Of a stretch of DNA of 64,000 bases, positions 1 through 17,263 are shown in pieces. Source of the DNA: Pseudomonadota bacterium (GTDB lineage Bacteria; Pseudomonadota; Gammaproteobacteria; GCA-002705445; GCA-002716945); the NCBI GenBank assembly GCA_036163455.1, contig JAYZKL010000018.1:3595-67594 (forward strand), read 5' to 3'. How positions within the stretch are numbered: position 1 is the stretch's first letter; each line of letters opens with the position of its first letter. Position numbers and translations under genes: made by a program. The notes under the pieces were generated by a model. The model saw only the letters and a program-made list of their open reading frames with translations, did not search any database and had not been told where the DNA came from.

Positions 1-762
1 AGTTGAAAAGAAATCTGATGAAGAGTATATGGCGGTCACATATTTTGATTTTTGTAAAGCTGTCTTAAGCGTAGCTAAGATTTTGCTCAATCGATCTTTT
101 TTATTAATATTTGAATTTATAGATTCTAAAAATTTTGGTATTTCATTTATTTTTATCTTTACATTTATAACCTGTAGATTTTTTTTCAGATTATTTATAT
201 CTTTCTGAGAAAACTGTCCAATTAAGAAGACTTTTCGAGCATTTTTTTTTGTATATAAACTAGAGTCAGGTGCCAGTATTTTTTCTATTAATCGCGGAGC
301 TTTATTAAAAACGTTATTTCCAAATACCAAAATAGTATCTGCTCTATTTTTTACCTCCATTAATGTAGTCGCAACAAATCCAGTTCTTTGAACAATATTC
401 ATATTATCAAAAAAATATTTGCTATTAATATGATCAAAATTTGCATTGATTTGAGAACAAAGATTAATTGCTGATCTTATTGATGCAACATCTGCGCCTC
501 TATTGAGAATTCCAATTTCATTCGATTTTTTTATTAATAATTTAGACTTTAAAATAGCATCATTATAAGACGAAACTTTATTTTTTATTTTTGGAGTTAA
601 TGCACTTTTATTATTTATATTAAAAGATTCAAATTTTTTTACACATTCTTTATTTTTGAGATTGTTAACCTTAAATTTTTTATTTTTATAAGTGATATTA
701 ACATCATCACAGAGAAGGGGGCAAAATGGGCACGTAATTTCTTTAGTTATAATCTTTTTCAT
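1..762 (-). CDS. Formylmethanofuran dehydrogenase subunit B family protein (FwdB/FhcB-like), 3'-partial: the gene runs off the window start
   Basis: I translated the minus strand by hand. ATG is at 762..760 and the protein begins MKKIITKEITCPFCPLLCDDVNI..., with no stops down to position 1. It carries an N-terminal CxxCxxxC motif and an ADTILVFGNN segment typical of the molybdopterin-oxidoreductase-like FwdB/FhcB family. It is not in the supplied ORF track, probably because it is partial. Confidence 0.55.
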   Translation of the reverse strand, partial: MKKIITKEITCPFCPLLCDDVNITYKNKKFKVNNLKNKECVKKFESFNINNKSALTPKIKNKVSSYNDAILKSKLLIKKSNEIGILNRGADVASIRSAINLCSQINANFDHINSKYFFDNMNIVQRTGFVATTLMEVKNRADTILVFGNNVFNKAPRLIEKILAPDSSLYTKKNARKVFLIGQFSQKDINNLKKNLQVINVKIKINEIPKFLESINSNINKKDRLSKILATLKTALQKSKYVTAIYSSSDFFST

Positions 763-842
763 ATACCCTATACATTCTACATTATAAACATATTACTTTA
801 CACTCAAAAGGTATAGAATAGACACCTGAAGTTTATTTTTTT

Positions 843-1805
843 ATGAAAAGAGATTCAAAAAAAAACATAAATGAGCTAGTCATCTCGAGTCCAGCACGAT
901 TACATCTAGGCTTTTTTGGGATTGAAGATAATTATGGTTATTCTTATGGAAGTATGGGTCTAGCTATAAACCTTCATAAAACATTAATTAAAGTTAGTAA
1001 AGCGAAAGAATCTTATTCCAATATTTCAAAAAAATATATAAAACCACTAGAAACTTATCTTAACTCAATTGGTAAAAAACAAAAAATGAGAATTATTTTA
1101 GAAAATAAGATGAAAAAGCATGTGGGTTTAGGGTCTGGAACTCAAACTGCATTATGTTTGGGAAAAGGAGTTTCAAAATTTTTAGGGCTGGAACTAGATA
1201 TTGAAAACATAGCTAAGATTTTTAATAGGGGATTAAGGTCAGGAGCCGGAATAGGAGTATTTGAAAAAGGTGGCTTTATAGTAGATACCTGTAAGAAAAA
1301 TAATCAACACCCACAAATTTTATTAAGGAAAAAGTTTCCAAGCAGCTGGAAAATAGTCCTATTGTCTGACATGGCATTGAGGGGTTTTTATGGAGAGAGA
1401 GAAGAAAAATTTTTTAGAAACACTAAAGCCTCTAAACTTATTTCTTCTGAATTATCTGAAGTGGTTTTAAGGGGAATAATACCATCTATTATATATAAAG
1501 ATTTTACATGTTTTGCGAGGAATATTTCCTATTTTCAAAAGTTGACTGCAGAGTTTTATAAGAAAAAACAAAAAGATTTATTTATAAGCGATGAAATATC
1601 GAAAGTTATAAAATATTTATCAAAGTCTAGAACATTGGGCATTGGGCAAAGCTCATGGGGCCCATTTTCATATATATTCACAGAATCATTGCCTTCTGCT
1701 AAAGAGGTGATTAAAATTATAAAGACTAAATTTAAAATGTATAATAATCTTACATATGAAATTGCCAGCGCTAAAAACTCTGGCTATACAATAAAAAATA
1801 TTTAA
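843..1805 (+). CDS. mptG: beta-ribofuranosylaminobenzene 5'-phosphate (beta-RFAP) synthase, methanopterin biosynthesis (GHMP-kinase-like)
   Basis: The N-terminal SPARLHLGF matches the PSRLHFGL motif of beta-RFAP synthases. A GHMP-like glycine-rich GLGSGTQ segment is present. The gene sits directly upstream of mtdB/mch in an H4MPT cluster. Confidence 0.6.
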   Translation: MKRDSKKNINELVISSPARLHLGFFGIEDNYGYSYGSMGLAINLHKTLIKVSKAKESYSNISKKYIKPLETYLNSIGKKQKMRIILENKMKKHVGLGSGTQTALCLGKGVSKFLGLELDIENIAKIFNRGLRSGAGIGVFEKGGFIVDTCKKNNQHPQILLRKKFPSSWKIVLLSDMALRGFYGEREEKFFRNTKASKLISSELSEVVLRGIIPSIIYKDFTCFARNISYFQKLTAEFYKKKQKDLFISDEISKVIKYLSKSRTLGIGQSSWGPFSYIFTESLPSAKEVIKIIKTKFKMYNNLTYEIASAKNSGYTIKNI

Positions 1806-1819
1806 ATTCGGGGGAATTT

Positions 1820-2710
1820 ATGGAAAAGCCTTACTTATTACATATGATAACACCAGAAAAAAACCTAAGTCCTTTTGATGCCAATATGGCTTTTGATGCA
1901 GGATGGAATTCTATAATTCCTTATACTGCAGTTGAGATGGAAGAAGTACAAACTTTAGTGCAAGATGCAATTTTTTCTAGATCAACTTCTGCTTTAAAGC
2001 GTACAGGAATTTTTTTTGGAGGAAGAGATTGTCATATGGCAATGGATATGATCAATGAAGCAAAAAAATCGATGGTTCCACCTTTTGAAGTTTCAGTCTT
2101 TGCTGATCCTAGTGGAGCATTTACAACTGCCGCTGGAATGGTTGCTGTTACTGAAAAAGCTCTTAAAGAAAAATTTAATCTTACACTTGCAGATACAAAA
2201 ATTGCAATTCTAGGAGGTACTGGTCCCGTAGGAATAGTTTCTGCTGTCATTACTGCAAAAGCAGGTGCAAATGTTTATGTAGTTGGAAGGAATGCAGAAA
2301 AGACTGAAAAAGTCGTCAATTTGTGTAGGGAAAGATATAAATCTTCAAATGTGAATGTAGGTTTAGATGCTGACAAAGAATCTCTTTTATCGGATACTGA
2401 TATAGTTTTTGGAACAGCAGCACCAGGAATAGAGATTATGAATAAAGATTTAGTAAAAAATTCAAAAGCATTAAAAATTTGTGCTGATACAAATGCAGTT
2501 CCACCTTCAGGGATTTATGGTGTAGGTGTAAGTGATAATGTTGTAAAAATGAAAGATTCTTCTTCTGATTGTTATGGAATTGGAGCTTTAGCAATTGGAA
2601 ATGTTAAATATAAGGCTCAGCATGAGTGTCTCAAATTAATGTGCAATACAGATAAGCCTGTTTATTTAGATTTTGAGCATGCATTTGAGTTTGCACAGAA
2701 GAATGCGTAA
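1820..2710 (+). CDS. mtdB: NAD(P)-dependent methylene-tetrahydromethanopterin dehydrogenase (MtdA/MtdB family)
   Basis: From memory it aligns along the whole length to methylotroph MtdA/MtdB (GIFFGGRD, FEVSVFADPSGAFTTAAGMVA, Rossmann GGTGPVGI, GIGALAIG). A GGGGGA SD lies upstream. It is adjacent to mch as in methylotroph islands. Confidence 0.75.
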   Translation: MEKPYLLHMITPEKNLSPFDANMAFDAGWNSIIPYTAVEMEEVQTLVQDAIFSRSTSALKRTGIFFGGRDCHMAMDMINEAKKSMVPPFEVSVFADPSGAFTTAAGMVAVTEKALKEKFNLTLADTKIAILGGTGPVGIVSAVITAKAGANVYVVGRNAEKTEKVVNLCRERYKSSNVNVGLDADKESLLSDTDIVFGTAAPGIEIMNKDLVKNSKALKICADTNAVPPSGIYGVGVSDNVVKMKDSSSDCYGIGALAIGNVKYKAQHECLKLMCNTDKPVYLDFEHAFEFAQKNA

Positions 2711-3773
2711 AGCTGTATTAATAATAAATACCCATACAGAATATTTAGCAACTCAAGCAGAAAAACTAGGATATAAAACTTTCTGCATTGATGGTTTTAA
2801 TCAAAATAATTTAAATAAAATTTCTCGACAAAACTTCTTAAAAAAGTTTATCAAAAAAATACAGAAAGATTATAAATCAATAAAACTAATTTATGGATCT
2901 GGGCTAGAAGATAAACCACACACCTACAAAATATTGGATTCTGAAGTTGATGTTCAGGGAAATTCTTTTGAAATGCTTGAGCACTGCAATGATATTTTAA
3001 AGTTGGAAAAAGCATTAAATATAAGTGGATTACATATCCCCAAAACAAGCTTTAGACCTCTTGATAGAACAATAAAAACTATTGTAAAGCCATTACAAGG
3101 CTTTGGAGGATTGCATATAAGCTTTGCTAGTAAAAATAATAAGAATAATTATTATCAAGAATTTATACCCGGACAAACATTCTCTATATCATTTTTTAGA
3201 AACAAGAAAAAATTTTTTTTCCTTGGATTTAATCAATTATTTACATTAAAAGAATTTCCAACCAGTCCATTTATACATGCTGGCGCAATGAATATTAGTA
3301 GGATTAAAAAATCAACTAAAATAAAGAAATCAATTGAAATATTTTCATCGTTAATAGATTTGCAAGGTTATAACACGATAGATTTTAAGATATATAAGAA
3401 TAAGGTTTTTGTGATTGATATAAATCCACGCATTACATCAACTTTCAGGATATATAATGAACTCTATGCTAATGACTTACTGAAATCTCAAATTAATCTT
3501 AAAAATGGTGGAATGAAAGTCAATTATCCTAAACTTAAAAAATTTTATGGTTTTATACATATGTTTAGTAGGTCAAACTTTACTTTTTATAATAAAATTC
3601 AAGGTGATTCATCTATTACAAACCTACCATTAGAAGGTGAATTTATAAAAAAGGATAGTCCAGTTTTTACGATTAATTTTTTATCTGACTCACCATCAAA
3701 AGTAATTAAGTCATTAAAGAAAAGAATTAGTATGACAAGAAAGTATTTTAACTGTTATGATATAGATATCTAG
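2703..3773 (+). CDS. ATP-grasp family ligase (H4MPT/methylofuran-cluster associated)
   Basis: It has an ATP-grasp C-terminal motif (FVIDINPR). The likely start is the internal ATG at 2703 (MRKAVLII), overlapping the mtdB stop. One of three ATP-grasp paralogs in the island. Confidence 0.5.
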   Translation: MRKAVLIINTHTEYLATQAEKLGYKTFCIDGFNQNNLNKISRQNFLKKFIKKIQKDYKSIKLIYGSGLEDKPHTYKILDSEVDVQGNSFEMLEHCNDILKLEKALNISGLHIPKTSFRPLDRTIKTIVKPLQGFGGLHISFASKNNKNNYYQEFIPGQTFSISFFRNKKKFFFLGFNQLFTLKEFPTSPFIHAGAMNISRIKKSTKIKKSIEIFSSLIDLQGYNTIDFKIYKNKVFVIDINPRITSTFRIYNELYANDLLKSQINLKNGGMKVNYPKLKKFYGFIHMFSRSNFTFYNKIQGDSSITNLPLEGEFIKKDSPVFTINFLSDSPSKVIKSLKKRISMTRKYFNCYDIDI

Positions 3774-3775
3774 AT

Positions 3776-4744
3776 ATGACAGATCAAATAAGTATAAATA
3801 AAATCACAAAACCTCTTGTTGAAGAATTAATTGAGAATGTAGATCAACTTAATCTTGGAATAACAACAAGCTCGGGTGGCGCTAAATTAATTGATGCTGG
3901 CATTAATCATAAAGGTTGCCTTGAGTCAGGGAGATTAATAACTGAAATATGTATGGGTGGTTTAGGAACTGTATCATTATCCATGAATAATACTTTTGAA
4001 AAATGGCCTTTATCAGTAGATGTACATAGCACAAACCCAGTTTTGAGTTGTCTTGCAAGTCAATATGCCGGCTGGAGTCTTTCACATGTAAAAGATGAAG
4101 AAAATTTTAATGCTCTTGGTTCAGGCCCATGTCGTTCATTAGCATGTAAGGAAGAATTATTTACAGATTTAGGTTACAAAGATAAATTTTTTTCTACTGT
4201 TGCAGTTATGGAAGTAGATACTACACCTCCGCAAGAAATTATTGATAAAATAGTTAATGATTGCAATATTAGTGAAAAAAACCTTACTGTTATATTAACT
4301 CCTACAAGATCGCTTTCTGGATGCGTTCAAATTGTTGGTCGTGTTCTTGAAGTTGGAATGCATAAAGTACACGAACTTGGTTTTCCATTAGATAAAATTA
4401 TAGATGGGTTTGGTTCTGCACCTTTACCTCCACCTGCACCTGATTTTTTAAATGGAATGGGAAGAACAAATGATGCTATTTTATATGGAGGTAAGGTTCA
4501 TTTATTTGTTGATGTACCAGATGATGAAGCTGATGAGCTTGCAAAAAGACTACCAAGTTCAACTTCTAGCGATTACGGGAAACCATTTGCTGAAGTTTTT
4601 AAAGAATATAAATATGATTTTTATAAAATTGATAAAATGCTCTTTAGTCCGGCCTATGTAATAGTTACATCAATCAAGACTGGAAATACCTTTAGAAATG
4701 GAAAGATTAATCCAGAATTAATCGATAAATCTTTCACTAAATGA
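3776..4744 (+). CDS. mch: Methenyl-tetrahydromethanopterin cyclohydrolase
   Basis: Near-colinear similarity to bacterial Mch (AGxKLIDAG, SxNPVLxCLxSQYAGWSL, ALGSGPxRSL, GRTNDAILxGGxVHLFV, DYGKPFAEVF). Confidence 0.9.
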   Translation: MTDQISINKITKPLVEELIENVDQLNLGITTSSGGAKLIDAGINHKGCLESGRLITEICMGGLGTVSLSMNNTFEKWPLSVDVHSTNPVLSCLASQYAGWSLSHVKDEENFNALGSGPCRSLACKEELFTDLGYKDKFFSTVAVMEVDTTPPQEIIDKIVNDCNISEKNLTVILTPTRSLSGCVQIVGRVLEVGMHKVHELGFPLDKIIDGFGSAPLPPPAPDFLNGMGRTNDAILYGGKVHLFVDVPDDEADELAKRLPSSTSSDYGKPFAEVFKEYKYDFYKIDKMLFSPAYVIVTSIKTGNTFRNGKINPELIDKSFTK

Positions 4745-5655
4745 GAAAAGTTTTAATATTAACTGATCAACAAGGTTGGCATTTTAATCAATTAAAAAGA
4801 TCTTTTTTAAAGCAGGAAATCAAAGTTGAATCTTATAACTTAACTCAATTAACTCTATCTTTTGTAAAAAATGAGAATAAAGTATTTTATGGCAATAGAG
4901 AATTAGACAATGTTACGGATGTAATGGTTAGATTCATACCAAATGGTAGTTTGGAAGAAATAGTTACTTATCTGAATATACTGAAAATATTTAAAATGCA
5001 AGGCGCAAATGTTGTTAATACAGCAGAAAATATCGAGCTGACTGTAGATAAATCTTTAACCACAGCTTTACTTAATTCTCTTAATATAAATACTCCAAAA
5101 ACTTGGGTTATTAGGGGAAAAAAAGAGACAAAAAATCTTGTCAAAAAAATATTAAAAGAATGTAAATTAATATATAAACCAATATTTGGTTCACAAGGAA
5201 ACAATATAAAAAAAATTGAAAAATTAGAGGATTTGGACTCTATTGATAACGAAAGCAATATCTATTATCTTCAAGAATTTTTAGACACTGATCCATTCCA
5301 TGACTATCGAGTACTTATTGTAAAGAATATAAATAAAAATAAAGTTTTTTCAATGATAAGATATGGCAAATCTTATATTAATAATTTCTCGAAGGGAGCT
5401 AAATGTATGCCAATAAAACTTGATCAGAAAATGGCTGAAATTGCATTGGCAGCAGCAGAAATAACAAATCTATCATTATGTGGCGTAGATATTATTAAAC
5501 AAAAAGATAAATTTTTTGTTATTGAAGTTAATGGAATTCCGGCATGGAAAGGATTACAGTCTATAAATAAAGAAAATATTGCTGATGTAATAGTTAATGC
5601 TTTTTTAAATTCATCAAGAAATAATACAAATCTATCTATTAAACCTGTTCCTTAA
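4741..5655 (+). CDS. ATP-grasp family protein, RimK-like (probable H4MPT/methylofuran gamma-glutamyl ligase-type)
   Basis: RimK-like C-terminus (FVIEVNGIPAWKG). ATGA overlap with mch. Position matches the orf5/orf17-type genes of H4MPT islands. Confidence 0.5.
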   Translation: MRKVLILTDQQGWHFNQLKRSFLKQEIKVESYNLTQLTLSFVKNENKVFYGNRELDNVTDVMVRFIPNGSLEEIVTYLNILKIFKMQGANVVNTAENIELTVDKSLTTALLNSLNINTPKTWVIRGKKETKNLVKKILKECKLIYKPIFGSQGNNIKKIEKLEDLDSIDNESNIYYLQEFLDTDPFHDYRVLIVKNINKNKVFSMIRYGKSYINNFSKGAKCMPIKLDQKMAEIALAAAEITNLSLCGVDIIKQKDKFFVIEVNGIPAWKGLQSINKENIADVIVNAFLNSSRNNTNLSIKPVP

Positions 5656-5657
5656 TA

Positions 5658-6539
5658 ATGTACAAGAATATCAATTATCCTAAAATTGATTCTGGACCTG
5701 AATACTCTTCCTTAAAAGAAGCATATAGCTTTGCTTGCAAGAAAGATGTTGAGATTATAAAGCCTGGAAATGTATATATCAGCTCTCCGCACAAAGATAC
5801 TAATTCTGATGATTATTTAAATAGTTATGAACATAGTTCTAAACATTTATTTCTTAAAGAAATAAGTCTTGGTAATAGAATATTTTTATCAGTTGAACAA
5901 ACACATAAATTTGTGAAAAAAAATACTAATTTAGGAATTATTTTGGTTTGTGCGCCATTAATCCACTCACTTATCTGTTATAAAGACTATCCTTTGAAAA
6001 AAGGCCTAACACTAACTCTAGAGAATACTACAAAATCAGATACAGTATCAGTTTGTAAAGCTATTAATCTAATAAACCCAGGCGGATTAGGTGTCAGCAA
6101 AGATCATGATACACGCACTTTGCCTGAGATTGGGCTCTTGGAGATTATGGAATATTCATCAAAATATGACAGAATCGCCTATCAATATACGAATATGTTC
6201 AATGATGTTCTAAATTTTGTAGTTCCATGCCTAAATAGCTACCAGGAGCGTTATAAATCACTTAGTTTGTCCATTTCTTTGACATTCCTAGAAGTATTAA
6301 GCAATATGCCAGATTCTCATATTGAGAGGAAATTTGGGCATAAAATAGCAAAAAAGACTAGTAATCAAGCCAATGATTTGCTAAAAATATTAGTTACGGA
6401 GAGAATTAATCAAGATTCACTTAATAATCGTTTAAGAGAACTTGATTATGAATACAAAAAACAAGGAATTAATCCGGGGACGACAGCAGATTTACTTGTC
6501 GCAGGTTTGATGATAAAACAAATCTTCAATAAAATTTGA
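5658..6539 (+). CDS. CitG/MdcB-like (triphosphoribosyl-dephospho-CoA synthase family) protein of H4MPT islands
   Basis: Size and position (between the ATP-grasp gene and fae) match the orf7-type gene of methylotroph H4MPT clusters. Family assignment is from weak pattern recognition only. Confidence 0.35.
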   Translation: MYKNINYPKIDSGPEYSSLKEAYSFACKKDVEIIKPGNVYISSPHKDTNSDDYLNSYEHSSKHLFLKEISLGNRIFLSVEQTHKFVKKNTNLGIILVCAPLIHSLICYKDYPLKKGLTLTLENTTKSDTVSVCKAINLINPGGLGVSKDHDTRTLPEIGLLEIMEYSSKYDRIAYQYTNMFNDVLNFVVPCLNSYQERYKSLSLSISLTFLEVLSNMPDSHIERKFGHKIAKKTSNQANDLLKILVTERINQDSLNNRLRELDYEYKKQGINPGTTADLLVAGLMIKQIFNKI

Positions 6540-6612
6540 AGATGGATTTTGCGCTCAAATTTGTGGTTGAAAATTAAAGCTTTAGGCCCGATAAATAACA
6601 CAGGAGATAATA

Positions 6613-7128
6613 ATGGCAGTAGTTGATAAAGTGTTAGTAGGTGAAGCTCTAGTTGTTACCGAAGGTGGCGACAATGAAATTTCACATATTGACCTATTAA
6701 TGGGTCCACGTGGATCAGCAGTTGAAGATGCGTTTTGTAATTCACTATGTAACAACAAAGATGGGTTTACATCTCTTTTAGCTGTAGTTGCACCTAACTT
6801 AGCTTGTAAACCAAGCACAGTTATGTTTAACAAAGTAACAATTAAAGGTGCTAAGCAAGCAGTTCAAATGTTTGGTCCTGCACAAGCAGCTGTAGCAAGA
6901 GCTGTAACTGATTGTGTTGAAGATGGAACAATACCAGAAAAAGAAGCAGAAGATATTTTCATCTGCGTTGGTGTATTTATCCACTGGGATGCAAGTGATG
7001 ATACTAGAATCTATGATTACAACTATGAAGCTACCAAAATGGCAATCAAAAATGCTGTTGCTGGTAAACCAAAAGCTGGAGAAGTTGTAGCAGGAAAATC
7101 TACACAACATCCATTTTCACCAAAATAA
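6613..7128 (+). CDS. fae: Formaldehyde-activating enzyme (5,6,7,8-tetrahydromethanopterin hydro-lyase)
   Basis: Strong similarity to Fae (VGEALV, HIDLxxGPRGS, [24 protein letters not shown], [30 protein letters not shown]). An AGGAGA SD sits 7 nt upstream. It appears monocistronic, with a terminator immediately downstream. Confidence 0.9.
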
Positions 7129-7142
7129 CAATTATGAGAATT

Positions 7143-7180
7143 GCCAACCGTGCTTTAAGCTCGGTTGGCTCTCTCTTTTA
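7143..7180 (+). terminator. Rho-independent terminator downstream of fae
   Basis: GCCAACCG(7143-7150), 11-nt loop, CGGTTGGC(7162-7169), followed by TCTCTCTTTT. The hairpin is GC-rich in an AT-rich background. Its 3' arm overlaps the last codons of the convergent gene 7155..7847. Confidence 0.55.
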
Positions 7181-7847
7181 GGAAACTAAATTTTCGAAGT
7201 TTATTCATAGATAATAAACTAGATACCAATACACCGCTTGCTCCAAGATTTTTTATAAACTTTATATCTAACATAGATCTAATTCCGCCAGCAACATAAT
7301 ATTCAGTTTTATATTTTTTTGTAATAAACTTTTTTATTATATGGAAGTTTGGTTTTGATTTTGTACCTACTCGTGATAAATCCATTATAATTACTTTTCT
7401 TGGATGCGTTCTTATGCATCTATGAATTGATTTTGGACCTATAATCCCATTTTTATAGTCTATGGAGCAAATATGTTTTTTAAACTTTTCTGAACTTAAT
7501 TCAAAATCTTTTGCTTTTTCACTACAAAATACTGGCACATAATTATTATAATTTTTATCTAGCTTGATTTTATTGAGGCCAGAGTCTATCCAAAAACTAA
7601 CTTTTGGAAATTTTTTTAATATTTGCATCAAAATATTATGATTAACTTTATCTGATATTATTGCGTCAAGATCAGCAATGTAGATTATTCTTGGAGAATA
7701 TATATCTATTAAATGAGTAATTATTTCAACAGGCTCTGTGGTATTGTATAGTTTGGGGTTTATTTTTTTATATGTGTTTCTATCGCCTTTTAAAGCTGTA
7801 ACTACTTGACTCTCTAATATGTCTATAACAGGAATGATGTCCATCAA
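7155..7847 (-). CDS. HisA/HisF-like (beta/alpha)8-barrel protein
   Basis: The N-terminus MMDIIPVIDILESQVV resembles the HisA/HisF start (IIPAIDLxxGxVVRL). It is embedded in the H4MPT island. Confidence 0.4.
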   Translation of the reverse strand: MMDIIPVIDILESQVVTALKGDRNTYKKINPKLYNTTEPVEIITHLIDIYSPRIIYIADLDAIISDKVNHNILMQILKKFPKVSFWIDSGLNKIKLDKNYNNYVPVFCSEKAKDFELSSEKFKKHICSIDYKNGIIGPKSIHRCIRTHPRKVIIMDLSRVGTKSKPNFHIIKKFITKKYKTEYYVAGGIRSMLDIKFIKNLGASGVLVSSLLSMNKLRKFSFLKERANRA

Positions 7848-8821
7848 TGATTAAGATACTAATATATGAATATGTTACAGGAGGTGGTTTGATAAATGAA
7901 GATTTAAGTTCAACTTTACTCAATGAAGCCAAATTAATTACATCAAACCTCTATAGCGATATGCGAGCATCGGATGGGGTTTCATTCAATTTTTTCTTAG
8001 ATGAAAGATTAAATAATCTTGTTACATCGGAATCAATCCTTATAAATAGAAAAAATATAAAAAAAATTTATGATAAAGACTTCCTAAAGAAATTTGACTA
8101 TATATTGCCAATACTGCCTGAAACAAATCTTGATTTATATAAGTATGTTAAATTTCTAGAAGAAAATAAAATAAATAAGATTATTTCAGATAAAAAAATA
8201 ATTTCTTTATTATCAAACAAATTATCTTTTTATAATTTTTTCATTAGTCATAATATAAATACAATACCAACATATGCTATTAATGACAGAAGAAAAATAA
8301 AAAAACTAAAAAACCTAATTGTTAAAGATAAATATGGAGCTGGATGTTCTTTTGTTAAAATCTTTAAGGGCCCATCTGACAAAGGTTTTTCTGGTTATAA
8401 TAATAATTATATCGTGCAACCCTATATTCATGGACAGTCATACAGCATATCGGCATTCTTTAGTAGAGATGATATATATTTATTGAGCATTAATAAACAA
8501 GATATAAAAATAAAACAAGGTTTCATTAAATTAAATAAAATTATTGTTAATGACAAAACTGTAGGTTGTACAAAAATATATGTTCTATTAGAAAGAATAA
8601 AATACATACTACCAAAACTATATGGATACATTGGCATAGATATAATAATTAATGATAAGGGCCTACATCTTGTAGAAATAAATCCAAGGTTGACAACTTC
8701 ATATATTGGATTAAGAGAGACTTTAGGAATTAATCTTGTTAATCTAATGATTGGAAAAAAAATAAAGAAAAGAATAGTTAGTGGAAAGAAATCCTGTATC
8801 AATTTAAATGAAACAAGATAA
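7847..8821 (+). CDS. ATP-grasp family protein (third paralog)
   Basis: C-terminal LVEINPRLTTS ATP-grasp motif. Confidence 0.45.
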   Translation: MIKILIYEYVTGGGLINEDLSSTLLNEAKLITSNLYSDMRASDGVSFNFFLDERLNNLVTSESILINRKNIKKIYDKDFLKKFDYILPILPETNLDLYKYVKFLEENKINKIISDKKIISLLSNKLSFYNFFISHNINTIPTYAINDRRKIKKLKNLIVKDKYGAGCSFVKIFKGPSDKGFSGYNNNYIVQPYIHGQSYSISAFFSRDDIYLLSINKQDIKIKQGFIKLNKIIVNDKTVGCTKIYVLLERIKYILPKLYGYIGIDIIINDKGLHLVEINPRLTTSYIGLRETLGINLVNLMIGKKIKKRIVSGKKSCINLNETR

Positions 8822-9860
8822 AACGAAAAATTTATATTTAGGTTGGGACATTGGTGGAGCACATACTAAATTATCTACAATAAAGCCTAACAGTTCTGCA
8901 TTTGATATATATAAGTGTCATTTATGGGAATCAACTAATCCATTAAAAAAAATTATCTCTTCTATTTGTGGAAAATATAAGAAAAAATTTAATGTAATAA
9001 ATATTATAACAATGTCAGGAGAGATGAGTGATATTTTTGAATCTAGGAGTAAAGGAGTTAAATATATTTTAAATATTTTTGATACTGTCAATAAAAACAA
9101 CTATGTATTCTCAATTAAGAAACCATTCTTCTTTAAACTTAGTAAGAGTATTAGTTCAGAATCTATATCATCAGCAAATTGGTTTGCTACGGCAAAGTTT
9201 CTTGAAACAAAAATAAATAATGCGATTGCGATTGATATTGGATCAACAACAACAGACATTATGCTTATAAAAGAAGGCAAGTGTATCAACAAAAATTATA
9301 GCGATCTTTTGAGACTACGATCTTCTGAATTGATATATATGGGCGTATTAAGAACACCAGTACACGCGGTTACAAAAGAGATACTGAGTCACCAAAAAAG
9401 GTTCCCTATAATTCCTGAAAATTTTTCTAATATGTCTGATGTATATAGTATTTTATCTGACATAAATCCTAAAATTGATTACTCAGAAAGTTGTGACCAC
9501 AAAAGTAAATCTTATAGAAATAGTTTGAGAAGACTCTCTCGCATATTGGGTTTTGACTATGAATCAAAAAATGAAAAAACAGTAATAAACTTAGCAAAAA
9601 AAATAAAGCTATCTCAAAAAGACTTTCTCACGAAAAAGATAAACAATCTATTACGAAAAAACTTCAAAAATGATAAATCGGTGAAAATTATTGGAATTGG
9701 AATAGGGAGTTTCCTAGTCGAGGAAATTGCTAAAAAAGTTAAGCTAAACTATAAAGACTTTAATAGCTTCTATCAAGATTATAATAAAAAATTATTCTTG
9801 CCATCAGATATTGCACCAGCTTACTCTATAAGTATGTTATTTAAATTAAGAAATGAATAG
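8808..9860 (+). CDS. ASKHA/hydantoinase-type ATPase-fold protein; resembles the conserved uncharacterised 'H4MPT-linked C1-transfer pathway' protein family
   Basis: N-terminal LGWDIGGAHTKL phosphate-1 motif and a second IAIDIGSTTTD motif, as expected for an actin-fold ATPase. It overlaps the upstream gene by 14 nt. Confidence 0.4.
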   Translation: MKQDKTKNLYLGWDIGGAHTKLSTIKPNSSAFDIYKCHLWESTNPLKKIISSICGKYKKKFNVINIITMSGEMSDIFESRSKGVKYILNIFDTVNKNNYVFSIKKPFFFKLSKSISSESISSANWFATAKFLETKINNAIAIDIGSTTTDIMLIKEGKCINKNYSDLLRLRSSELIYMGVLRTPVHAVTKEILSHQKRFPIIPENFSNMSDVYSILSDINPKIDYSESCDHKSKSYRNSLRRLSRILGFDYESKNEKTVINLAKKIKLSQKDFLTKKINNLLRKNFKNDKSVKIIGIGIGSFLVEEIAKKVKLNYKDFNSFYQDYNKKLFLPSDIAPAYSISMLFKLRNE

Positions 9861-11214
9861 AATAGAATTCGATTATTATAGCAATACTTCAGAAATTTTT
9901 GATTTTCTAAAAGATCAAGATTGGTCAGTTTTTCTATGTAGTAATTTTGATGTATTTGATACAGAAAAATATGACATTATTTCCTGTTGCCCAATTAAAA
10001 AAATTATAGCTTATCAGAATGCCACAATTGTTGAATTTAATGGTTCAAAAAAAGTTTTTAGAGATGATCCTATGGACGTGCTCAAGGACACAATGAAAGA
10101 ATCCTTTTCTAATAATTATACTGATTTACCTTTTTCTGGTGGTGCCATAGGTTATTTTTCATATGATTTAGGAAATAAATATGAATCTATCAAGTCTGTC
10201 AGCGCTGATTCTGATAATACTCCAATCATGGCATTTGGCATCTACGATTGGTCGATAATAATAGATCATAAATTAAAAAAATCAATTTTAATATATGAAG
10301 CTGAGAATGATTTGATTAAAGACATTATAAATAACTTTAAAAATAAAAAATTTGCAATGAAGAAAAAGAGAACTTTTTCAATTAATTCAAAGTACAGCTC
10401 TAATTTAAGTTATGAAGAATATGTTGAAAAATTTAATTCTATAAAGTCTTATATTGAAAAAGGAGATTGTTATCAGATAAATTTTGCACAACGATTTTCC
10501 CTTTCCTATGAGGGAGATACGTGGGAAATCTTTAAGAAGGTTTTGCAAAAATACAAAGCTCCGTATTCTTCGTATATGAATTTTCCATTTGTTAAAATTT
10601 TGAGTTACTCGCCTGAAAGATTTTTACAGATAGAAAATAATCATGTTGAAACAAAACCAATTAAAGGTACCAGACCGATACATGAGAATAAACAAAAAGA
10701 TATGCAATTAAAACAAGAACTTATTGACTCAAATAAAGATAAAGCAGAAAACTTAATGATAGTTGATCTATTAAGAAATGATTTAGGTAGAAACTGTAAT
10801 TTTGGCTCTATAAGGGTAAAAAAACTTTTTGAAATTGAAACTTTTTCGAATGTACATCACTTAGTTAGTACAATAGAGGGAAAAATATCTGATAAGAGTA
10901 ATATTTTTAAATTGATAAGAGATTGTTTCCCAGGCGGATCTATTACAGGTGCACCGAAAATACGTTCAATGCAAATAATTAATGAGCTTGAGTCAAATAG
11001 AAGAAGTATTTATTGTGGATCTATTGGTTATATTAGTTTTAACAATAAGGTGGATCTAAATATCGCTATCAGAACTATTATTGCAAATAAGAATTACCTC
11101 TATTTTTGGGGCGGAGGTGGCATAGTTTATGATTCAAATGTTAAGTCAGAGTTTCAAGAAACTATAGATAAGGTAAGCCCAATTATAAATGCTCTAAAAT
11201 CAGATAATACTTGA
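9853..11214 (+). CDS. pabB: Aminodeoxychorismate synthase component I-like (PabB/TrpE family), likely supplying the pABA moiety of methanopterin
   Basis: Chorismate-binding-enzyme motifs (IKGTRP, MIVDLLRNDLGR, FPGGSITGAPKIRSMQII, SIYCGSIGYI, GGGIVYDS). Confidence 0.65.
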   Translation: MNRIEFDYYSNTSEIFDFLKDQDWSVFLCSNFDVFDTEKYDIISCCPIKKIIAYQNATIVEFNGSKKVFRDDPMDVLKDTMKESFSNNYTDLPFSGGAIGYFSYDLGNKYESIKSVSADSDNTPIMAFGIYDWSIIIDHKLKKSILIYEAENDLIKDIINNFKNKKFAMKKKRTFSINSKYSSNLSYEEYVEKFNSIKSYIEKGDCYQINFAQRFSLSYEGDTWEIFKKVLQKYKAPYSSYMNFPFVKILSYSPERFLQIENNHVETKPIKGTRPIHENKQKDMQLKQELIDSNKDKAENLMIVDLLRNDLGRNCNFGSIRVKKLFEIETFSNVHHLVSTIEGKISDKSNIFKLIRDCFPGGSITGAPKIRSMQIINELESNRRSIYCGSIGYISFNNKVDLNIAIRTIIANKNYLYFWGGGGIVYDSNVKSEFQETIDKVSPIINALKSDNT

Positions 11215-11886
11215 GTTTATAGCTGATGAAACTTTTTTAAGTAGATTAAGATTAATCTCACTTCTATCAGCTTGATTCGAACATAATTGCCCTCGAAAAC
11301 CAAGAAAATCTGGATTGAATCTTTTCAGATTATTAATATCGCTAATCTTGAGCGAACCAGACAAACCGCAAAGAGTTTTATTTTTCTTAGTTATTGACAC
11401 AAATTTTTTAATTTCAGAGGGTTTGAGAATTTCAGTTAAAGATTTAGAGTTTTTATTAACAGTATCAATCATAATTCCTTGATAACCCATATTTATAATT
11501 TCTTCCAAAATATTCAGATCAAATGTTTTGTCTGCAAATAGTACACAAATAGGTTTTGTTTGAGCAAAGGAGAATTTTTGTAATAGTACTTTATGTTCAT
11601 CAATCATATTCTTATCAAATAGACCAATTTTTATATATTCAATTTCTTTATTAACAATTTTAGATAATATTGAAATAGTATTTGAATTATTTGGATTTGG
11701 ATTATTGCCTAAGGTCACACTTATTTTATGATGTTGTAGAGTTTTTTTTGCCTTATTGATAATGTCTAGTCCAACAAAACCAAGAGCCCCATCATCAACG
11801 TTTTTCAGATCAACAATATCTACTTTTGCATCAATAATTTTTTTTGCTTCCTCAATATTCTTAATACTTGCAAGAAAACCAGTCAT
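11200..11886 (-). CDS. mfnB: (5-formylfuran-3-yl)methyl phosphate synthase-like (MfnB/DUF556 family), methanofuran/methylofuran biosynthesis
   Basis: Aligns from memory with archaeal MfnB (VDIVDLKNVDDGALG vs ADIIDVKNPKEGSLGA; YIKIGLF vs YIKVGLY; GLSGSLKISDI...GFRGQLC vs ALAGSIKKEDI...GVRGAAC). Confidence 0.55.
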   Translation of the reverse strand: MTGFLASIKNIEEAKKIIDAKVDIVDLKNVDDGALGFVGLDIINKAKKTLQHHKISVTLGNNPNPNNSNTISILSKIVNKEIEYIKIGLFDKNMIDEHKVLLQKFSFAQTKPICVLFADKTFDLNILEEIINMGYQGIMIDTVNKNSKSLTEILKPSEIKKFVSITKKNKTLCGLSGSLKISDINNLKRFNPDFLGFRGQLCSNQADRSEINLNLLKKVSSAINSSII

Positions 11887-12443
11887 TTTTTTTCTCTATA
11901 ATTAGCAATTTTGTTTTCTATCCAATCCCATGCTTCTTTTTCTTTATCACCTGATGTTTTTTCTATACCTATTTTTAGATACTCAATCTCTTTTAAGATT
12001 TTTTCTAGAGATATACGTCCTAACCTACTAACTAATACAGAGGCTTCAATAACAGAGAATTGCGCCCTATTAAATCCTAAGAATGGTCTATGAATTTCTT
12101 TATTTAGAATCTCACAGATAACTTTAGGTCTAATTTCATCATCAATTGTTTCAGTCACAGAAATCTCATAATGAGAGTTTATATTCTCCAATCTTGGTAT
12201 ATCAACATTTTTAAGACTAATTAAAGGCCAGTCTTTTTTTATTCCGCAAATAATGCTTGCGAAAATCCTTACATCATCTGTAAAATTTATTACAGCTTTT
12301 TTTTGTGAAATTAAGTTCGCCAATGTTGTTGATGGCTTAAAGGGTGAAATAAAAACTTTTTCCTGGTCTATTTTAATCCCCATTGGCGCATTATGTACAT
12401 CGCCATCAATAGATTTAGTGGTTACTATTACTTCATGTATCAT
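11883..12443 (-). CDS. Conserved H4MPT-island protein (orf9/DUF447-like)
   Basis: Size, context and N-terminal (TTKSIDGDVHNAPMG) resemblance to the DUF447 proteins of methylotroph H4MPT clusters. Weak. Confidence 0.3.
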   Translation of the reverse strand: MIHEVIVTTKSIDGDVHNAPMGIKIDQEKVFISPFKPSTTLANLISQKKAVINFTDDVRIFASIICGIKKDWPLISLKNVDIPRLENINSHYEISVTETIDDEIRPKVICEILNKEIHRPFLGFNRAQFSVIEASVLVSRLGRISLEKILKEIEYLKIGIEKTSGDKEKEAWDWIENKIANYREKK

Positions 12444-13828
12444 TTCTTTTTATATGTTGGTCCAGCGGTTTTAAATGACATTTTATCATCTTCTTCCTTT
12501 TCTACTAAACATCCCCAAGATAATTCTTCATCTTGTGAATAGAATTTACCTAATTGATATGCAATCTGTGCTCTTGCTAACTCAACTCCAAGATAGAAAG
12601 CATGACCTGTATCATTATCTACATTTAAATTTTTGAAAAAATCAAAGGGATCTTTTGCCGTTTCAAACCCATCTCTATTAAAAACATGAATTCCTTTATC
12701 TGTGACCATTATTCTATAGCTAGGATCTTTAATATCTTTTGATAATTCTAAAACTTCATCATAAGAAAATTTAAAAGGTTTGTCTTCATGAGTAGTTAGC
12801 AAGTCATTACTAATATGTTTGGGCGTCATATTGCTCATACAAGATGCATGCAGTATTCTGCGTGCTATATCAGTTTCTTTTATAACTGTTTGACAATGAT
12901 CGCTAACCTGTGTTGTTAAAATATGGTTTATTTTTAATTCTGAAGCTATTCCCATCAATAATAGGGTAAGCCCTGTTGTATCTGCGTGTGATAATTCTGT
13001 TAAATTACCAGAACCCATCATGATATGTATATCCGGATATTTTTTTCTCAGTTCAGCATATCGTAAAATAGATTTTGTGAAACCAAAATTAATTGGGTCT
13101 AGGATAGAGTCAGCTATAAAAGTTCTTTTTTGTTGAATACATTTATCTATGATTTTATATAATTCATCTAATTTTCCATCCAGCGGGATAAGAATAGGGT
13201 ATGAGTCTACTTCATCTAAAATATAAAAATTGTCTGATTTTATACTTAGAAGATAATCTGCTCCTGCTTTACCTCCTCTAATCAGCTCATTATCATTATG
13301 AGAATCTACACTAACAAAAAAACCTAAACGCTTTAATTCTTGCACTGTTTCTTCTAGATGACCAAATTCAATATTTGGCAGACAACCGACATCTATTACA
13401 TCAGCACCATTATCTCTATAAAAGTTTGCTTGTTGTACAATCTGTTCTAGATTCATATTTGGTGCATCAGTAATTTCAGCAAAAATAGAAACTTCATATT
13501 GTGATAAATCATGCTTGAATGACTCTTTTCCAAATAAATTGGGTAGATCCTTGAGTTCTTCGGGCCCTCGAACGAAATCAACTTTTAATTTTTTAGATAA
13601 TATAGAGATATCGCCTCTAGTTCTTCCTGGAATTATGATCTTATCAAAGCTTGAGACATCACCGATTCTTCTTTCTATCATTTGTGTCGTTAATAATGAT
13701 GCAACACTAATATTTAGATTACGAATCTCGTAATCAAAAGGAAGTTCACCCATTTCATTTATAACTCTCTTCAAACTTCTTTCGGCAAGCTTTCCTGTAA
13801 TAAAAAGAATTTTTTCTTTCAACGCCAT
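12440..13828 (-). CDS. Dihydropteroate synthase-like (pterin-binding) protein fused to an N-terminal extra domain; methanopterin biosynthesis type
   Basis: Pterin-binding DHPS-like segment (GADVIDVGCLP, HILTTQVSD, MMGSGNLTE). Two-domain 462-aa architecture as in the orf19/MptH-like genes of H4MPT islands. Confidence 0.55.
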   Translation of the reverse strand: MALKEKILFITGKLAERSLKRVINEMGELPFDYEIRNLNISVASLLTTQMIERRIGDVSSFDKIIIPGRTRGDISILSKKLKVDFVRGPEELKDLPNLFGKESFKHDLSQYEVSIFAEITDAPNMNLEQIVQQANFYRDNGADVIDVGCLPNIEFGHLEETVQELKRLGFFVSVDSHNDNELIRGGKAGADYLLSIKSDNFYILDEVDSYPILIPLDGKLDELYKIIDKCIQQKRTFIADSILDPINFGFTKSILRYAELRKKYPDIHIMMGSGNLTELSHADTTGLTLLLMGIASELKINHILTTQVSDHCQTVIKETDIARRILHASCMSNMTPKHISNDLLTTHEDKPFKFSYDEVLELSKDIKDPSYRIMVTDKGIHVFNRDGFETAKDPFDFFKNLNVDNDTGHAFYLGVELARAQIAYQLGKFYSQDEELSWGCLVEKEEDDKMSFKTAGPTYKKK

Positions 13829-14352
13829 TTTTTAATTACTTTTTTTAGTTCATTAATATTTTTGACAACATCAGTATTTTTAAACTTCTTTAACAATTTA
13901 TAATTTTTAAGATCAATTTCTCTAGGATAAACAGTCACCATTTTGCCAGGGGCAGGTGTAATTATAACCGGTTCTGTATCACAGGCTAGTACAATTGAAT
14001 GAACATTACATTTACCAGCTTGCGCAAAAATATTTGATATTAAATTATCAGAAAACCCATATGCCATTTGAGCAACCGTATTTGATGTTGCTGGTGAAAC
14101 AATTAACACTTTATAAACATCTTCATAAAATAAGCTTACTGGAGCAGAACTTGCAGTTACATCTTTGAAAACCTTAATTTTATTTTTTTTAAGATCGCTC
14201 AACTTATAACCATACCATTTTAAGACTTCTTCTCCCGCTTTACTTAAGAATAAATCTATATTGTTCAAAGAATTAATAATTTCCATTGACTCTTTTAAAA
14301 AATGACCAGAACCTGTTATTGCCCAAGCTATTCTTTTATTTTTATTATTCAT
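13819..14352 (-). CDS. Flavoprotein of the HFCD/AfpA family (dihydromethanopterin reductase DmrB/AfpA-like)
   Basis: RIAWAITGSGHF... is an N-terminal flavin-binding motif typical of HFCD-family flavoproteins. Located in the methanopterin biosynthesis operon. Confidence 0.45.
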   Translation of the reverse strand: MNNKNKRIAWAITGSGHFLKESMEIINSLNNIDLFLSKAGEEVLKWYGYKLSDLKKNKIKVFKDVTASSAPVSLFYEDVYKVLIVSPATSNTVAQMAYGFSDNLISNIFAQAGKCNVHSIVLACDTEPVIITPAPGKMVTVYPREIDLKNYKLLKKFKNTDVVKNINELKKVIKKWR

Positions 14353-14959
14353 CTTTATTTAAAATATCTTTAATCTTTTCTTTATACTTATTTAAATCTT
14401 CCTTGTTGTTGATATTAATAAATAAATCTTTATTATTTTCAAAGTTAATAGTATTAACCGAACACAATTCAAACCATTTATCAATTTTTCTTTCTCCTGA
14501 ATCTAAAAATTTTTCAAGACTACCAAGTAAAGACTTTTTTATGAGACAATATACGGGTTGTAATCGTTCTCCATCAAATGCAACATTAATATCAGAATCA
14601 TCTTCTAATAATATCATTTTTTTGAAGTAAGATTCGTTAATAAATGGTCCATCACATGGTAAGGTAATTAGATATTCTGTATGCGATTCTTTTAAACCAG
14701 TATACATTCCAGCCAATGGTCCAAGATAACCACTCATTGAATCTACGCATACTTTGAAACCAAGGTTATTATAGATATCCAAATTTTTATTAGCATTAAC
14801 TAAAACATCAGTGCAATAAGTTTGAGATAAAGAACACAAGTGTTGGATTAAATATTTATCTTTAATCTTTATAAGGCCTTTATCAAGACCCTTCATTCTA
14901 GAGGATTTTCCACCAGCTAAAATTAAGGCAGTTAATTGATTTTTATCTATTTCAATCAT
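14345..14959 (-). CDS. mobA: Molybdenum cofactor guanylyltransferase
   Basis: LILAGGKSSRMKGLDKGLI N-terminal nucleotide-binding motif and LPCDGPF motif of MobA. Confidence 0.7.
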   Translation of the reverse strand: MIEIDKNQLTALILAGGKSSRMKGLDKGLIKIKDKYLIQHLCSLSQTYCTDVLVNANKNLDIYNNLGFKVCVDSMSGYLGPLAGMYTGLKESHTEYLITLPCDGPFINESYFKKMILLEDDSDINVAFDGERLQPVYCLIKKSLLGSLEKFLDSGERKIDKWFELCSVNTINFENNKDLFININNKEDLNKYKEKIKDILNKDE

Positions 14960-16816: not shown

Positions 16817-17147
16817 CGAGAGTCAGCAATGCAGTTGCTGCAAATTGCAGAGGAAAGTCCGGGCTCCATAGGCAAGAACGCCAGGTAACACCTGGGAAAC
16901 GTGAGTTTACGGAAAGTGCTACAGAAAATAACCGCCAGTATTTGGTAAGGGTGAAAAGGTGAGGTAAGAGCTCACCACGTATATGGTAACTAATACGGTT
17001 AGAGCAAACCCCGTTCGGAGCAAGGCAAATTTATAGCGTATGTCAGCCTAAGACTTGCTATGTGGTATGCTGCTTGAGGTTTTTGGTGACAAAAATCCTA
17101 GATTAATGACTGCACAAGACAGAACCCGGCTTATTTGCTGGCTCTCA
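16817..17147 (+). ncRNA. rnpB: RNase P RNA (bacterial type A, M1 RNA)
   Basis: Universal motifs GGAAAGTCCGGGCTCCATAGG, AGGTAACACCTGGG, ACAGAAAATAACCGCC, GGTAAGGGTGAAAAGGTGAGGTAAGAGCTCACC and ACAGAACCCGGCTTA. The P1 stem is formed by GCGAGAGTCAGCAA (16817-16829) pairing with TTGCTGGCTCTC (17135-17146). Confidence 0.9.
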
Positions 17148-17263
17148 GCCTATATTCTCATATAAAATTCACTATAAACTGATAAGTTATTGTTTATAAA
17201 CATATTAATCAAATATACTAAAAAACCCACTATATATAACCACAAAACTGCTTGTATTGATCC

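Follow-up and report, generated by a model that had tools for sequence, protein, structure and literature searches.

A compact gene block for tetrahydromethanopterin- and methylofuran-linked formaldehyde oxidation in a streamlined marine bacterium, and its putative link to methanethiol

Introduction

Why would a bacterium with a streamlined genome keep some 15 kb of tightly packed genes for the oxidation of formaldehyde, and where would that formaldehyde come from? This question is raised by positions 1–14,959 of a 64,000-nt stretch of contig JAYZKL010000018.1 (assembly GCA_036163455.1; the whole stretch is hereafter the window). They had been read, from the letters alone, as a compact island for formaldehyde oxidation linked to tetrahydromethanopterin (H4MPT) and methylofuran and for the synthesis of both cofactors, in the very AT-rich DNA of a marine-type bacterium that also oxidizes thiosulfate.

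Our analysis points, with very high confidence, to dissimilatory H4MPT/methylofuran-linked formaldehyde oxidation as the predicted pathway. Positions 1–14,959 are predicted to form the right-hand two-thirds of a vertically inherited gene block of ~19.5 kb. Overall, it is highly probable that the locus encodes a complete formaldehyde-to-formate route, fed by methanethiol, in an organism of the GCA-002705445 type; taken separately, methanethiol as the main formaldehyde source is a proposal that we favor with some reserve. Methanethiol is a central intermediate of the marine turnover of dimethylsulfoniopropionate (DMSP), and its consumers are poorly constrained. The gene set is complete but ordinary, coherent and correctly annotated, and it is already known for this lineage; the H4MPT pathway, its likely supply by methanethiol and the pairing with sulfur oxidation have all been published for it. 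The window adds a well-resolved example and gene-order detail, not a new concept.

Results and discussion

Gene calls, packing and soundness of the contig

We searched the proteins of the window's open reading frames (ORFs) with NCBIfam/TIGRFAM models, which carry curated cut-offs, and with Pfam. All 17 of the ORFs predicted in 1–14,959 were recovered at their predicted positions, and each fell into the family that had been named for it. Fae, Mch, MptG, the orf9-type protein, PabB and MobA scored above the curated NCBIfam cut-offs; with E-values down to 1e-121, chance is ruled out for the family assignments. The profile check proposed along with the original prediction, in which the mch and fae calls were singled out, thus came out in its favor, as did the description of the DNA as very AT-rich (GC ~29% over the whole 64-kb window).

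The block is as tightly packed as had been described: genes overlap by 4–15 bp at seven junctions, and the largest gap between genes on the same strand is 73 bp, ahead of fae. The convergent pabB and mfnB-like genes overlap by 15 bp (11200–11214), and the start codons of the divergent orf17-like (− strand) and orf1/MfnD-like (+ strand) genes lie ~2 bp apart (7844–7847), so that each promoter must sit within the opposite gene. A scan for promoters and terminators returned fewer consensus matches than in shuffled sequence and no terminators within the block; it was uninformative because the DNA is so AT-rich.

An independent contig of the same species (ENA ERZ27286375 k119_1669961, 105,726 bp; hereafter the conspecific contig) supplied the island (L072), the sox region (L078) and an extension to the left (L086). 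L072 is 99.8% identical to the window over 6 kb, and L086 differs from it by 12 mismatches in 5,628 bases compared, window position 1 corresponding to L086 position 16377. A Fae protein identical to that of the window was present in 43 blocks of the metagenome collection, and the eight contigs examined (Tara Oceans and others) share its gene order, and on the right-hand side they lead on to dusA and a gene for a methyltransferase, just as the window does; for the MptG protein, no exact match was on record. That the juxtaposition of C1 (one-carbon) and Sox genes might be an assembly or binning chimera is suggested only by the general risk attached to metagenome-derived sequence. We consider its probability negligible, as the island, the sox cluster and all between lie, together with the left extension, on a single independent contig, and the island–dusA–methyltransferase junction recurs on several other contigs (Tara and other projects).

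Formaldehyde-oxidation enzymes

The predicted pathway would begin with the formaldehyde-activating enzyme, which condenses formaldehyde with H4MPT to methylene-H4MPT. Its gene, fae (6613–7128, +), scored 237 bits against a cut-off of 118 for TIGR03126 (PF08714, 6e-66), and the protein aligns end to end with the Methylorubrum extorquens Fae structure 1Y5Y (224.6 bits). Oxidation of methylene-H4MPT to methenyl-H4MPT, yielding NAD(P)H, would fall to an mtdB-type NAD(P)-dependent methylene-H4MPT dehydrogenase (1820–2710, +; Pfam Mpt_N, 2e-36). The protein gave only 114 bits against M. extorquens MtdA structures, its relatives at 72% identity carry the NCBI name 'NAD(P)-dependent methylenetetrahydromethanopterin dehydrogenase', and its gene occupies the mtdB slot of the published Methylophilaceae list; it is probably MtdB. 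Methenyl-H4MPT would then be converted to formyl-H4MPT by the cyclohydrolase Mch (mch, 3776–4744, +), for which TIGR03120 gave 404.2 bits against a cut-off of 228.8 (PF02289, 5e-124).

The last step, transfer of the formyl group to methylofuran and its hydrolysis to formate, would be carried out by the Fhc complex. The N-terminal 254 codons of fhcB lie at 1–762 (−; TIGR03129, 6e-26) and run off the left end of the window; on conspecific contigs the complete protein has 413 residues (L086:15897–17138). The remaining core genes, fhcACD and mtdA, had been presumed to lie just left of the window, and leftward extension through the conspecific contig bore this out for the former: fhcA, fhcD and fhcC follow directly, and the order fhcB-A-D-C is the same in the related genomes L001 and L011, in the conspecific contigs L070–L075 and in L086. 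FhcA (TIGR03121, 715 bits), FhcD (TIGR03119, 421 bits) and FhcC (TIGR03122, 160 bits) of L001 are all above cut-off. The FhcABCD complex is thus complete by homology, with fhcA, fhcC and fhcD outside the window. The presumption failed for mtdA, as the 16 kb to the left on the conspecific contig hold no second Mpt_N gene.

FhcB differs from its solved counterpart. With the M. extorquens FhcB chain (361 aa), alignment starts only at residue 85 of the window protein, whereas that to archaeal FwdB begins at residue 5; the matches to archaeal FwdB/FmdB (9e-19 to 3e-9) are also better than that to M. extorquens FhcB (1.5e-8). The N-terminal region, in contrast to M. extorquens, has an archaeal-like four-cysteine motif, CxxCxxxC..C, whose residues C11, C14, C18 and C40 are invariant across the order at 40–85% overall identity. 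This likeness, along with the presence of mobA in the cofactor operon, could be taken to mean a true Mo/W formylmethanofuran dehydrogenase that oxidizes formyl-methylofuran directly to CO2, or reduces CO2. Such an enzyme is exceedingly improbable here. Where archaeal FwdB has its catalytic Cys/Sec-His, this protein has Tyr-Phe, the first of which varies within the order (Y/F/T/L); the molybdopterin-oxidoreductase domain (PF00384) gave no Pfam match in the 254 N-terminal residues or among the precomputed matches of the full-length protein; the full-length L001 homologue scores 187 bits, under the 328-bit equivalog cut-off; and there is no FwdD-like gene. Because of the variable Tyr-Phe at the catalytic positions and the lack of a detectable pterin domain, FhcB is predicted not to be a redox subunit, and it may be an iron–sulfur-containing but non-redox variant. 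The archaeal Fwd/Fmd complexes and the biosynthetic enzymes MfnB, MfnD, MfnF, MptG and MptN all have homologues in the window, but with the redox-active Cys/Sec-His missing and no pterin-binding domain detected in subunit B, the Fhc complex should, as in methylotrophs, work oxidatively and as a hydrolase.

Between the divergent fhcB and mptG genes lies an intergenic region (763–842) with a conserved block of ~55 nt, ATTCTACATTATAAACAT..ACTTTACACTCAAAAGGTATAGAAT. L001 and L082 have it in nearly identical form, although in such relatives the coding DNA on either side is no more than 75–84% identical; it can still be recognized in the more distant L087, L009 and L011. The region presumably carries overlapping promoters.

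Cofactor biosynthesis and comparison with known islands

For the assignments below, gene functions were taken from Hemmann 2021 and gene order from the Methylophilaceae H4MPT list of Beck et al. 2014 (PMC4109929), which runs fhc, mptG, mtdB, orfY, mch, orf5, orf7, (fae), orf17, orf1, orf9, pabB, orf22, orf19, orf20, afp.

The H4MPT branch would be served by pabB, mptG, the DHPS-like, DUF447 and CitG-like genes and a DmrB-type dihydromethanopterin reductase; the dedicated genes of this branch, mptG, the dihydropteroate synthase (DHPS)-like gene and the reductase gene, are all present. The mptG gene (843–1805, +) encodes beta-ribofuranosylaminobenzene 5'-phosphate synthase, the enzyme of the first committed step (TIGR00144, 123.3 bits against a cut-off of 113.5; NF040726, 2e-45). 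Its substrate p-aminobenzoate, which also serves folate synthesis, would come from aminodeoxychorismate synthase component I, encoded by pabB (9853–11214, +; TIGR00553, 367.5 bits against 328.4). The CitG-like gene (5658–6539, +; PF01874, 3e-48) sits at the orf7 position of the published list and is a candidate for an H4MPT-linked role. On the minus strand, the DUF447 gene (11883–12443; PF04289, 1e-23; PF20766, 2e-14) and the DHPS-like gene with a DUF6513 N-terminus (12440–13828; TIGR00284, 189 bits, below cut-off; PF20123, 2e-28) correspond by order to orf19 and orf20; no relative of the DHPS-like protein with a solved structure was found. The flavoprotein gene (13819–14352, −) matches PDB 3WIS/4MWG, labelled 'putative dihydromethanopterin reductase (AfpA)', at 160.8 bits (2e-46), with TIGR02700 and TIGR02699 below cut-off, and its product is a probable dihydromethanopterin reductase of the AfpA/DmrB type.

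Methylofuran would be made by the mfnB-like and mfnF/orf9-like genes, orf17 and three ATP-grasp ligases of the orfY/MyfA, orf5/MyfB and orf1/MfnD types. The mfnB-like, DUF556-type gene at the orf22 position (11200–11886, −; PF04476, 5e-48; MJ1099 structure 4RC1, 1.5e-12) encodes a 4-(hydroxymethyl)-2-furancarboxaldehyde-phosphate (4-HFC-P) synthase that by homology would supply the furan moiety. The orf9/MfnF-type gene (8808–9860, +), called ASKHA-like in the original prediction and hydantoinase-like, scored 260 against 244 bits for TIGR03123 ('probable H4MPT-linked C1 transfer pathway protein') and 1e-48 for NF040623 (MfnF). The HisA/HisF-family gene at the orf17 position (7155–7844, −, with an alternative TTG start at 7847; TIGR00734, 1e-26; PF00977) is called as 229 aa on conspecific contigs, and M. 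extorquens needs Orf17 to make methylofuran (Hemmann 2021).

Among the ATP-grasp genes, the one at the orfY/myfA position (methylofuran glutamate ligase type; 2703–3773, +, alternative TTG start at 2673) lies between mtdB and mch as in the published list, is called as 356 aa on conspecific contigs, and matches PF02655 at 2e-21 and MfnD only partially (55.8 bits). The RimK/MptN-like gene at the orf5/myfB position (methylofuran polyglutamate ligase type; 4741–5655, +) gave 176 bits, below cut-off, for NF040720 (MptN), with TIGR00768 and PF08443. The gene at the orf1 position (7847–8821, +) matches NF040722 (MfnD) over its full length (89 bits, below cut-off) and PF02655 at 2e-27. In Hemmann 2021, Orf5 is MyfB, and orf1 is described as another paralogue that resembles MfnD more closely; here, position and the extent of the MfnD match served to decide which ATP-grasp_3 gene is MyfA and which Orf1. 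The MfnD-like orf1 gene would predict a methylofuran of the tyramine type. With these, homologues of MfnB/Orf22, MfnF/Orf9, MyfA/OrfY, MyfB/Orf5 and Orf17 from the methylofuran set of that study are present.

These results agree with the claim of an essentially whole H4MPT gene set, as content and order match those of the Methylophilaceae list, down to the placement of orf21/mfnE outside the block in both and a flavoprotein of the AfpA/DmrB type in the window. Compared with the 'archaeal-like' cluster of M. extorquens and the island of Methylophilaceae, the genes of the window are packed with overlaps and lie in DNA of ~29% GC. The only addition is mobA (14345–14959, −), the first gene of the minus-strand cofactor operon, which encodes molybdenum cofactor guanylyltransferase (TIGR02665, 177.4 bits against 151.85) and overlaps the flavoprotein gene by 8 bp. 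The position of mobA is kept in every relative whose locus reaches it (L001, L002, L004–L006 and L008–L011), and the gene occurs neither in the Methylophilaceae island list nor in the Gemmatimonadaceae clusters examined.

Inheritance and host lineage

The word island invites the thought of recent horizontal acquisition. H4MPT genes are patchily distributed in Bacteria, and the nearest Mch proteins outside the clade are only 54–55% identical (metagenome-assembled genomes, MAGs, of other Gammaproteobacteria), followed by ~42% (Gemmatimonadaceae, Planctomycetes, Asgard archaea), in a scan based on exact peptide patterns and so biased. The composition scan that had been proposed as a test of acquisition nevertheless set nothing apart: GC content at third codon positions (GC3) is 0.191 for the block against 0.190 for the rest of the window, relative synonymous codon usage (RSCU) correlates at r = 0.987, and the tetranucleotide profile is the same in every 5-kb piece (r ~0.98), so that the block equals its flanking core genes in GC, GC3, codon usage and tetranucleotides. 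Its neighbors are dusA, the RNase P RNA, the division and cell wall (dcw) cluster and secA. A scan of the window for tRNA genes gave only tRNA-Lys at 57332, a long way from the island, and none of the proteins scanned fell into an integrase- or transposase-like family, repeats not having been searched.

Furthermore, the full gene order is kept in eleven related genomes (L001–L011) and in L087, in which the block and its flanks are syntenic although the proteins have diverged widely: relative to the window, catalytic proteins are 68–96% identical (Fae 78–99%), and cofactor-synthesis proteins go down to 33–45%. The block was therefore present before the lineage radiated, and a transfer, if any, would be older than the order's radiation; a recent one is very unlikely. 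None of the marks of a mobile island was found, be it an unusual composition, a tRNA or integrase at its edge or a variable occurrence in relatives, and the term should not suggest that the block is mobile or was acquired recently. Gemmatimonadaceae MAGs have similarly compact clusters in a different gene order, which indicates that compactness is not special to this lineage.

The closest Mch relatives (75–94% identical) come from marine 'Gammaproteobacteria' MAGs and one single-cell genome. One relative with 76% identical Mch and the same synteny, BS301-5m-G69 (L008; 31% GC, estimated 1.27 Mb), is classified as o__GCA-002705445;f__GCA-002716945, and some homologues of the window dehydrogenase lie on contigs of ~1.08 Mb. 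From this classified relative and the synteny, the window most likely stems from order GCA-002705445. This uncultured marine group of Gammaproteobacteria is sister to SAR86, has AT-rich genomes of ~1.1–1.3 Mb and ~30% GC, and is under-recovered by short reads; a Great Barrier Reef data set is reported to hold 34 circular MAGs of it. The description of the host as a streamlined, AT-rich marine bacterium with Sox genes thus held. Names that NCBI attaches to relatives ('Ectothiorhodospiraceae', 'Enterobacteriaceae', 'Thiothrix') look like placeholders and were given no weight. The alphaproteobacterial TMED127/Methylaequorales, for which a 'methylotrophy island' has been published, was also considered and rejected: that island has xoxF, pyrroloquinoline quinone (PQQ) and lanthanide-uptake genes, which are absent here.

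For the order, Francis et al. 2021 (PMC8371827) report a complete H4MPT pathway, no recognizable ribulose monophosphate (RuMP) or serine pathway, and detection of the SBP56 protein of the order in North Sea metaproteomes. Priest et al. 2022 (bioRxiv 10.1101/2022.08.12.503524) describe methanethiol oxidase (MTO), a complete H4MPT pathway, dsrAB and soeABC in genus GCA-2705445, confirmed in all of its species representatives. The genomes of the order are likewise very small, AT-rich and marine, with H4MPT, SBP56/methanethiol oxidase and sulfur-oxidation genes. The sulfur genes cited there are dsrAB and soeABC, whereas the window shows soxXYZA.

Methanethiol oxidase beside the block

On the conspecific contig, mtoX lies ~6.5 kb left of the window; its 480-aa product scored 704.8 bits for NF052453, against an equivalog cut-off of 650. 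It is followed by a gene for a 667-aa fusion of SCO1/SenC with MauG (CCP_MauG) and by one for a ResA/TlpA-like redoxin, which sits between the fusion gene and fhcC, and the trio (L086:8460–12539) abuts fhcC. In relatives, the gene left of fhcC had looked MauG-like; a homology search identified the full-length protein as the SCO1/SenC–MauG fusion. The same arrangement, again with an SBP56 gene that satisfies the MtoX equivalog model, is found in L082/L084, from a related species (Mch 88% identical), and in the distant order member L087. The published mtoX signature is mtoX-SCO1/senC-mauG, sometimes fused (Kroeber and Schaefer 2019, PMC6548844; Eyice et al. 2018, PMC5739008), and this hallmark of an SBP56-family MtoX followed by SCO1/SenC and MauG was found on L086, outside the window.

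Methanethiol oxidase catalyzes CH3SH + O2 + H2O → HCHO + H2S + H2O2 (PMC6548844; PMC5739008). In the organism of the window, this reaction would be the principal source of formaldehyde, which would enter the H4MPT pathway and supply reducing power. Formate would in turn be oxidized by a molybdenum formate dehydrogenase; such an enzyme would account for the conserved mobA of the cofactor operon and, 16 kb left of the window, for a NuoE/NuoF-like fusion gene (FdsGB-like) of a kind seen in NAD-linked formate dehydrogenases. Sulfide might be oxidized by the products of soxXYZA and TusA, plus those of dsrAB and soeABC as reported for genus GCA-2705445.

Methylophaga thiooxydans has the same trio of mtoX, fused sco1/mauG and a tlpA-like gene; there, formaldehyde derived from methanethiol is oxidized via H4MPT to formate and CO2, and the sulfide passes to inorganic sulfur-oxidation enzymes (PMC6548844; PMC5739008). 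It differs in having RuMP assimilation, MxaF/XoxF and a much larger genome, and in lacking soxA and soxB, and the accessible parts of these sources make no mention of mtoX adjoining fhc genes in Methylophaga. Francis et al. and Priest et al. report presence or absence of pathways; in the parts of their papers accessible to us, mtoX-sco1/mauG-resA abutting fhcCDAB and the cofactor genes is not described, and no such description was found in the literature on this lineage within the same bounds. The physical arrangement, with mtoX abutting the fhc and cofactor genes across the order, may be undescribed.

Further to the left (L086:1–8414), the FdsGB-like gene is accompanied by genes for a pterin-4a-carbinolamine dehydratase, a SCO1 protein, an AlkB-like hydroxylase of the FA_desaturase family, a ferredoxin and a BenC-like ferredoxin reductase, a weakly GST-like ORF of 216 aa, and a 506-aa ORF with a sub-threshold FadL/TodX match (21.9 bits against a cut-off of 29.7), a possible outer-membrane protein. 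This gene order is the same in L082 and L087, and the AlkB-like gene fits a 2026 study in which the order showed the highest alkB transcript levels. Read from left to right, the FdsGB-like gene, the pterin-4a dehydratase gene, SCO1, the AlkB-like hydroxylase with its ferredoxin and reductase, the possible FadL/TodX-like channel, mtoX, sco1/mauG, resA, fhcCDAB, the H4MPT and methylofuran genes and mobA would make up a supercluster of ~37 kb kept across the order, half of which is the H4MPT island. It is tempting, though doubtful at present, to see in this a single module for scavenging volatile compounds derived from phytoplankton, chiefly methanethiol. If true, an abundant lineage that short-read metagenomes under-sample would be a major, so far unquantified marine sink for methanethiol.

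Role of the pathway

The same genes would fit growth-supporting methylotrophy on methanol or methylamine, with XoxF/MxaF or methylamine dehydrogenase and the RuMP or serine cycle, as in Methylophilaceae and Methylobacterium. In its favor, the genes are ordered as in the Methylophilaceae island, and the literature terms members of order GCA-002705445 'methylotrophs'. We find this role quite improbable, as neither the 64-kb window nor the 16 kb to its left holds a gene for methanol or methylamine dehydrogenase, PQQ synthesis, hps/phi or the serine cycle; the neighboring MauG-like gene is of the SCO1-fused type that accompanies mtoX, not of a mau cluster; and in two genomes from the order, estimated to be ~93% complete, Francis 2021 (PMC8371827) could recognize neither the RuMP nor the serine pathway unambiguously. 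In contrast to cultured methylotroph hosts, the host here is streamlined (genome of ~1.1 Mb), and no pathway for C1 assimilation is known for it.

In non-methylotrophs, H4MPT-linked oxidation is a means of detoxification. The pathway might likewise remove mainly incidental formaldehyde, arising from demethylations and oxidative reactions, in place of an energy-yielding catabolism tied to a substrate; the lack of a known assimilation route in the order would fit such a role. It appears unlikely as the main one, given that ~20 genes, or ~2% of a 1.1-Mb genome, are kept strictly syntenic across an order of streamlined bacteria, that they adjoin a dedicated formaldehyde-generating oxidase, and that the SBP56 protein of the order was detected in situ. 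Detoxification and catabolism are not mutually exclusive.

The route from methanethiol through formaldehyde to formate thus accounts best for the neighborhood of the block, although several points weigh against it. All functions in this organism are assigned by homology, and mtoX, fhcACD and the formate dehydrogenase-like gene lie on the conspecific contig, outside the window. The choice of MtdB over MtdA/MtdC rests on low similarity to MtdA and on the names given to relatives. The MfnE/Orf21 kinase and an MfnC-type transaminase are absent from the block, the scanned parts of the 64-kb window and the 16 kb to its left, so that complete methylofuran synthesis is assumed; both may be encoded elsewhere in the genome. 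The gene soxB was found neither in the window nor in the 7.5 kb to its right on the conspecific contig. The assignment to the order rests on one classified relative (76% Mch identity) and synteny, the window holding no rRNA gene. Beyond the window and the stretches that flank it on the conspecific contig, the genome may encode other sources of formaldehyde, such as methanol via XoxF or demethylations. With ~2% of its genome given to formaldehyde oxidation and mtoX adjoining, this widespread streamlined lineage of the surface ocean is a plausible specialized methanethiol consumer that links the carbon and sulfur cycles.

Sulfur genes and the right-hand part of the window

The sox genes, the tusA-like gene and the YeeE transporter gene that had been listed for the neighborhood were all found, at 56–62 kb. 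On the minus strand, soxX (59646–59981; TIGR04485), soxY (59172–59636; TIGR04488, with a GGCGG C-terminus), soxZ (58848–59156; TIGR04490) and soxA (57988–58851; TIGR04484) each passed the equivalog cut-off, so that both the SoxXA cytochrome complex and the SoxYZ carrier are encoded. A TusA-like sulfurtransferase (61552–61794, +) scored 61 bits for NF001423 against a cut-off of 78 and matched PF01206 on the conspecific contig, and a YeeE/TsuA-family sulfur-compound transporter (56132–57331, +) matched NF052577 and NF041049 below cut-off and PF04143 on the conspecific contig. As with soxB, no soxCD genes lie in the window or the 7.5 kb to its right, where the conspecific contig (L078) carries ilvBHC, pssA, leuA, ung and trpS. 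Of the proposed combination of C1 and thiosulfate oxidation, the formaldehyde pathway is borne out, whereas thiosulfate oxidation is plausible but only partly encoded here, since soxB and soxCD are absent from the searched region.

Several smaller features lie nearby. An ORF of 197 aa (57432–58025, −; called as a 192-aa gene on conspecific contigs) overlaps the end of soxA; its N-terminus resembles that of a lipoprotein, and neither Pfam nor NCBIfam gave a match. The tRNA-Lys(UUU) gene (57332–57406, +) comes directly after the YeeE-family gene. At 49765–50414 (−), downstream of a resistance–nodulation–division (RND) efflux pair, two adjacent genes encode small mono-haem c-type cytochromes (110 and 106 aa); no specific family was assigned to them, and they are candidate periplasmic electron carriers.

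Nearer to the island, ~1.9 kb to its right, lies the RNase P RNA (class A, 293.6 bits; 16819–17149, +). The dcw cluster that follows (17301–35606) has an unusual order, in which ftsZ (19203–20351) stands between rsmH (17986–18933) and ftsI (20601–22094), and ftsA (33322–34575) is followed directly by lpxC (34680–35606), in the usual place of ftsZ.

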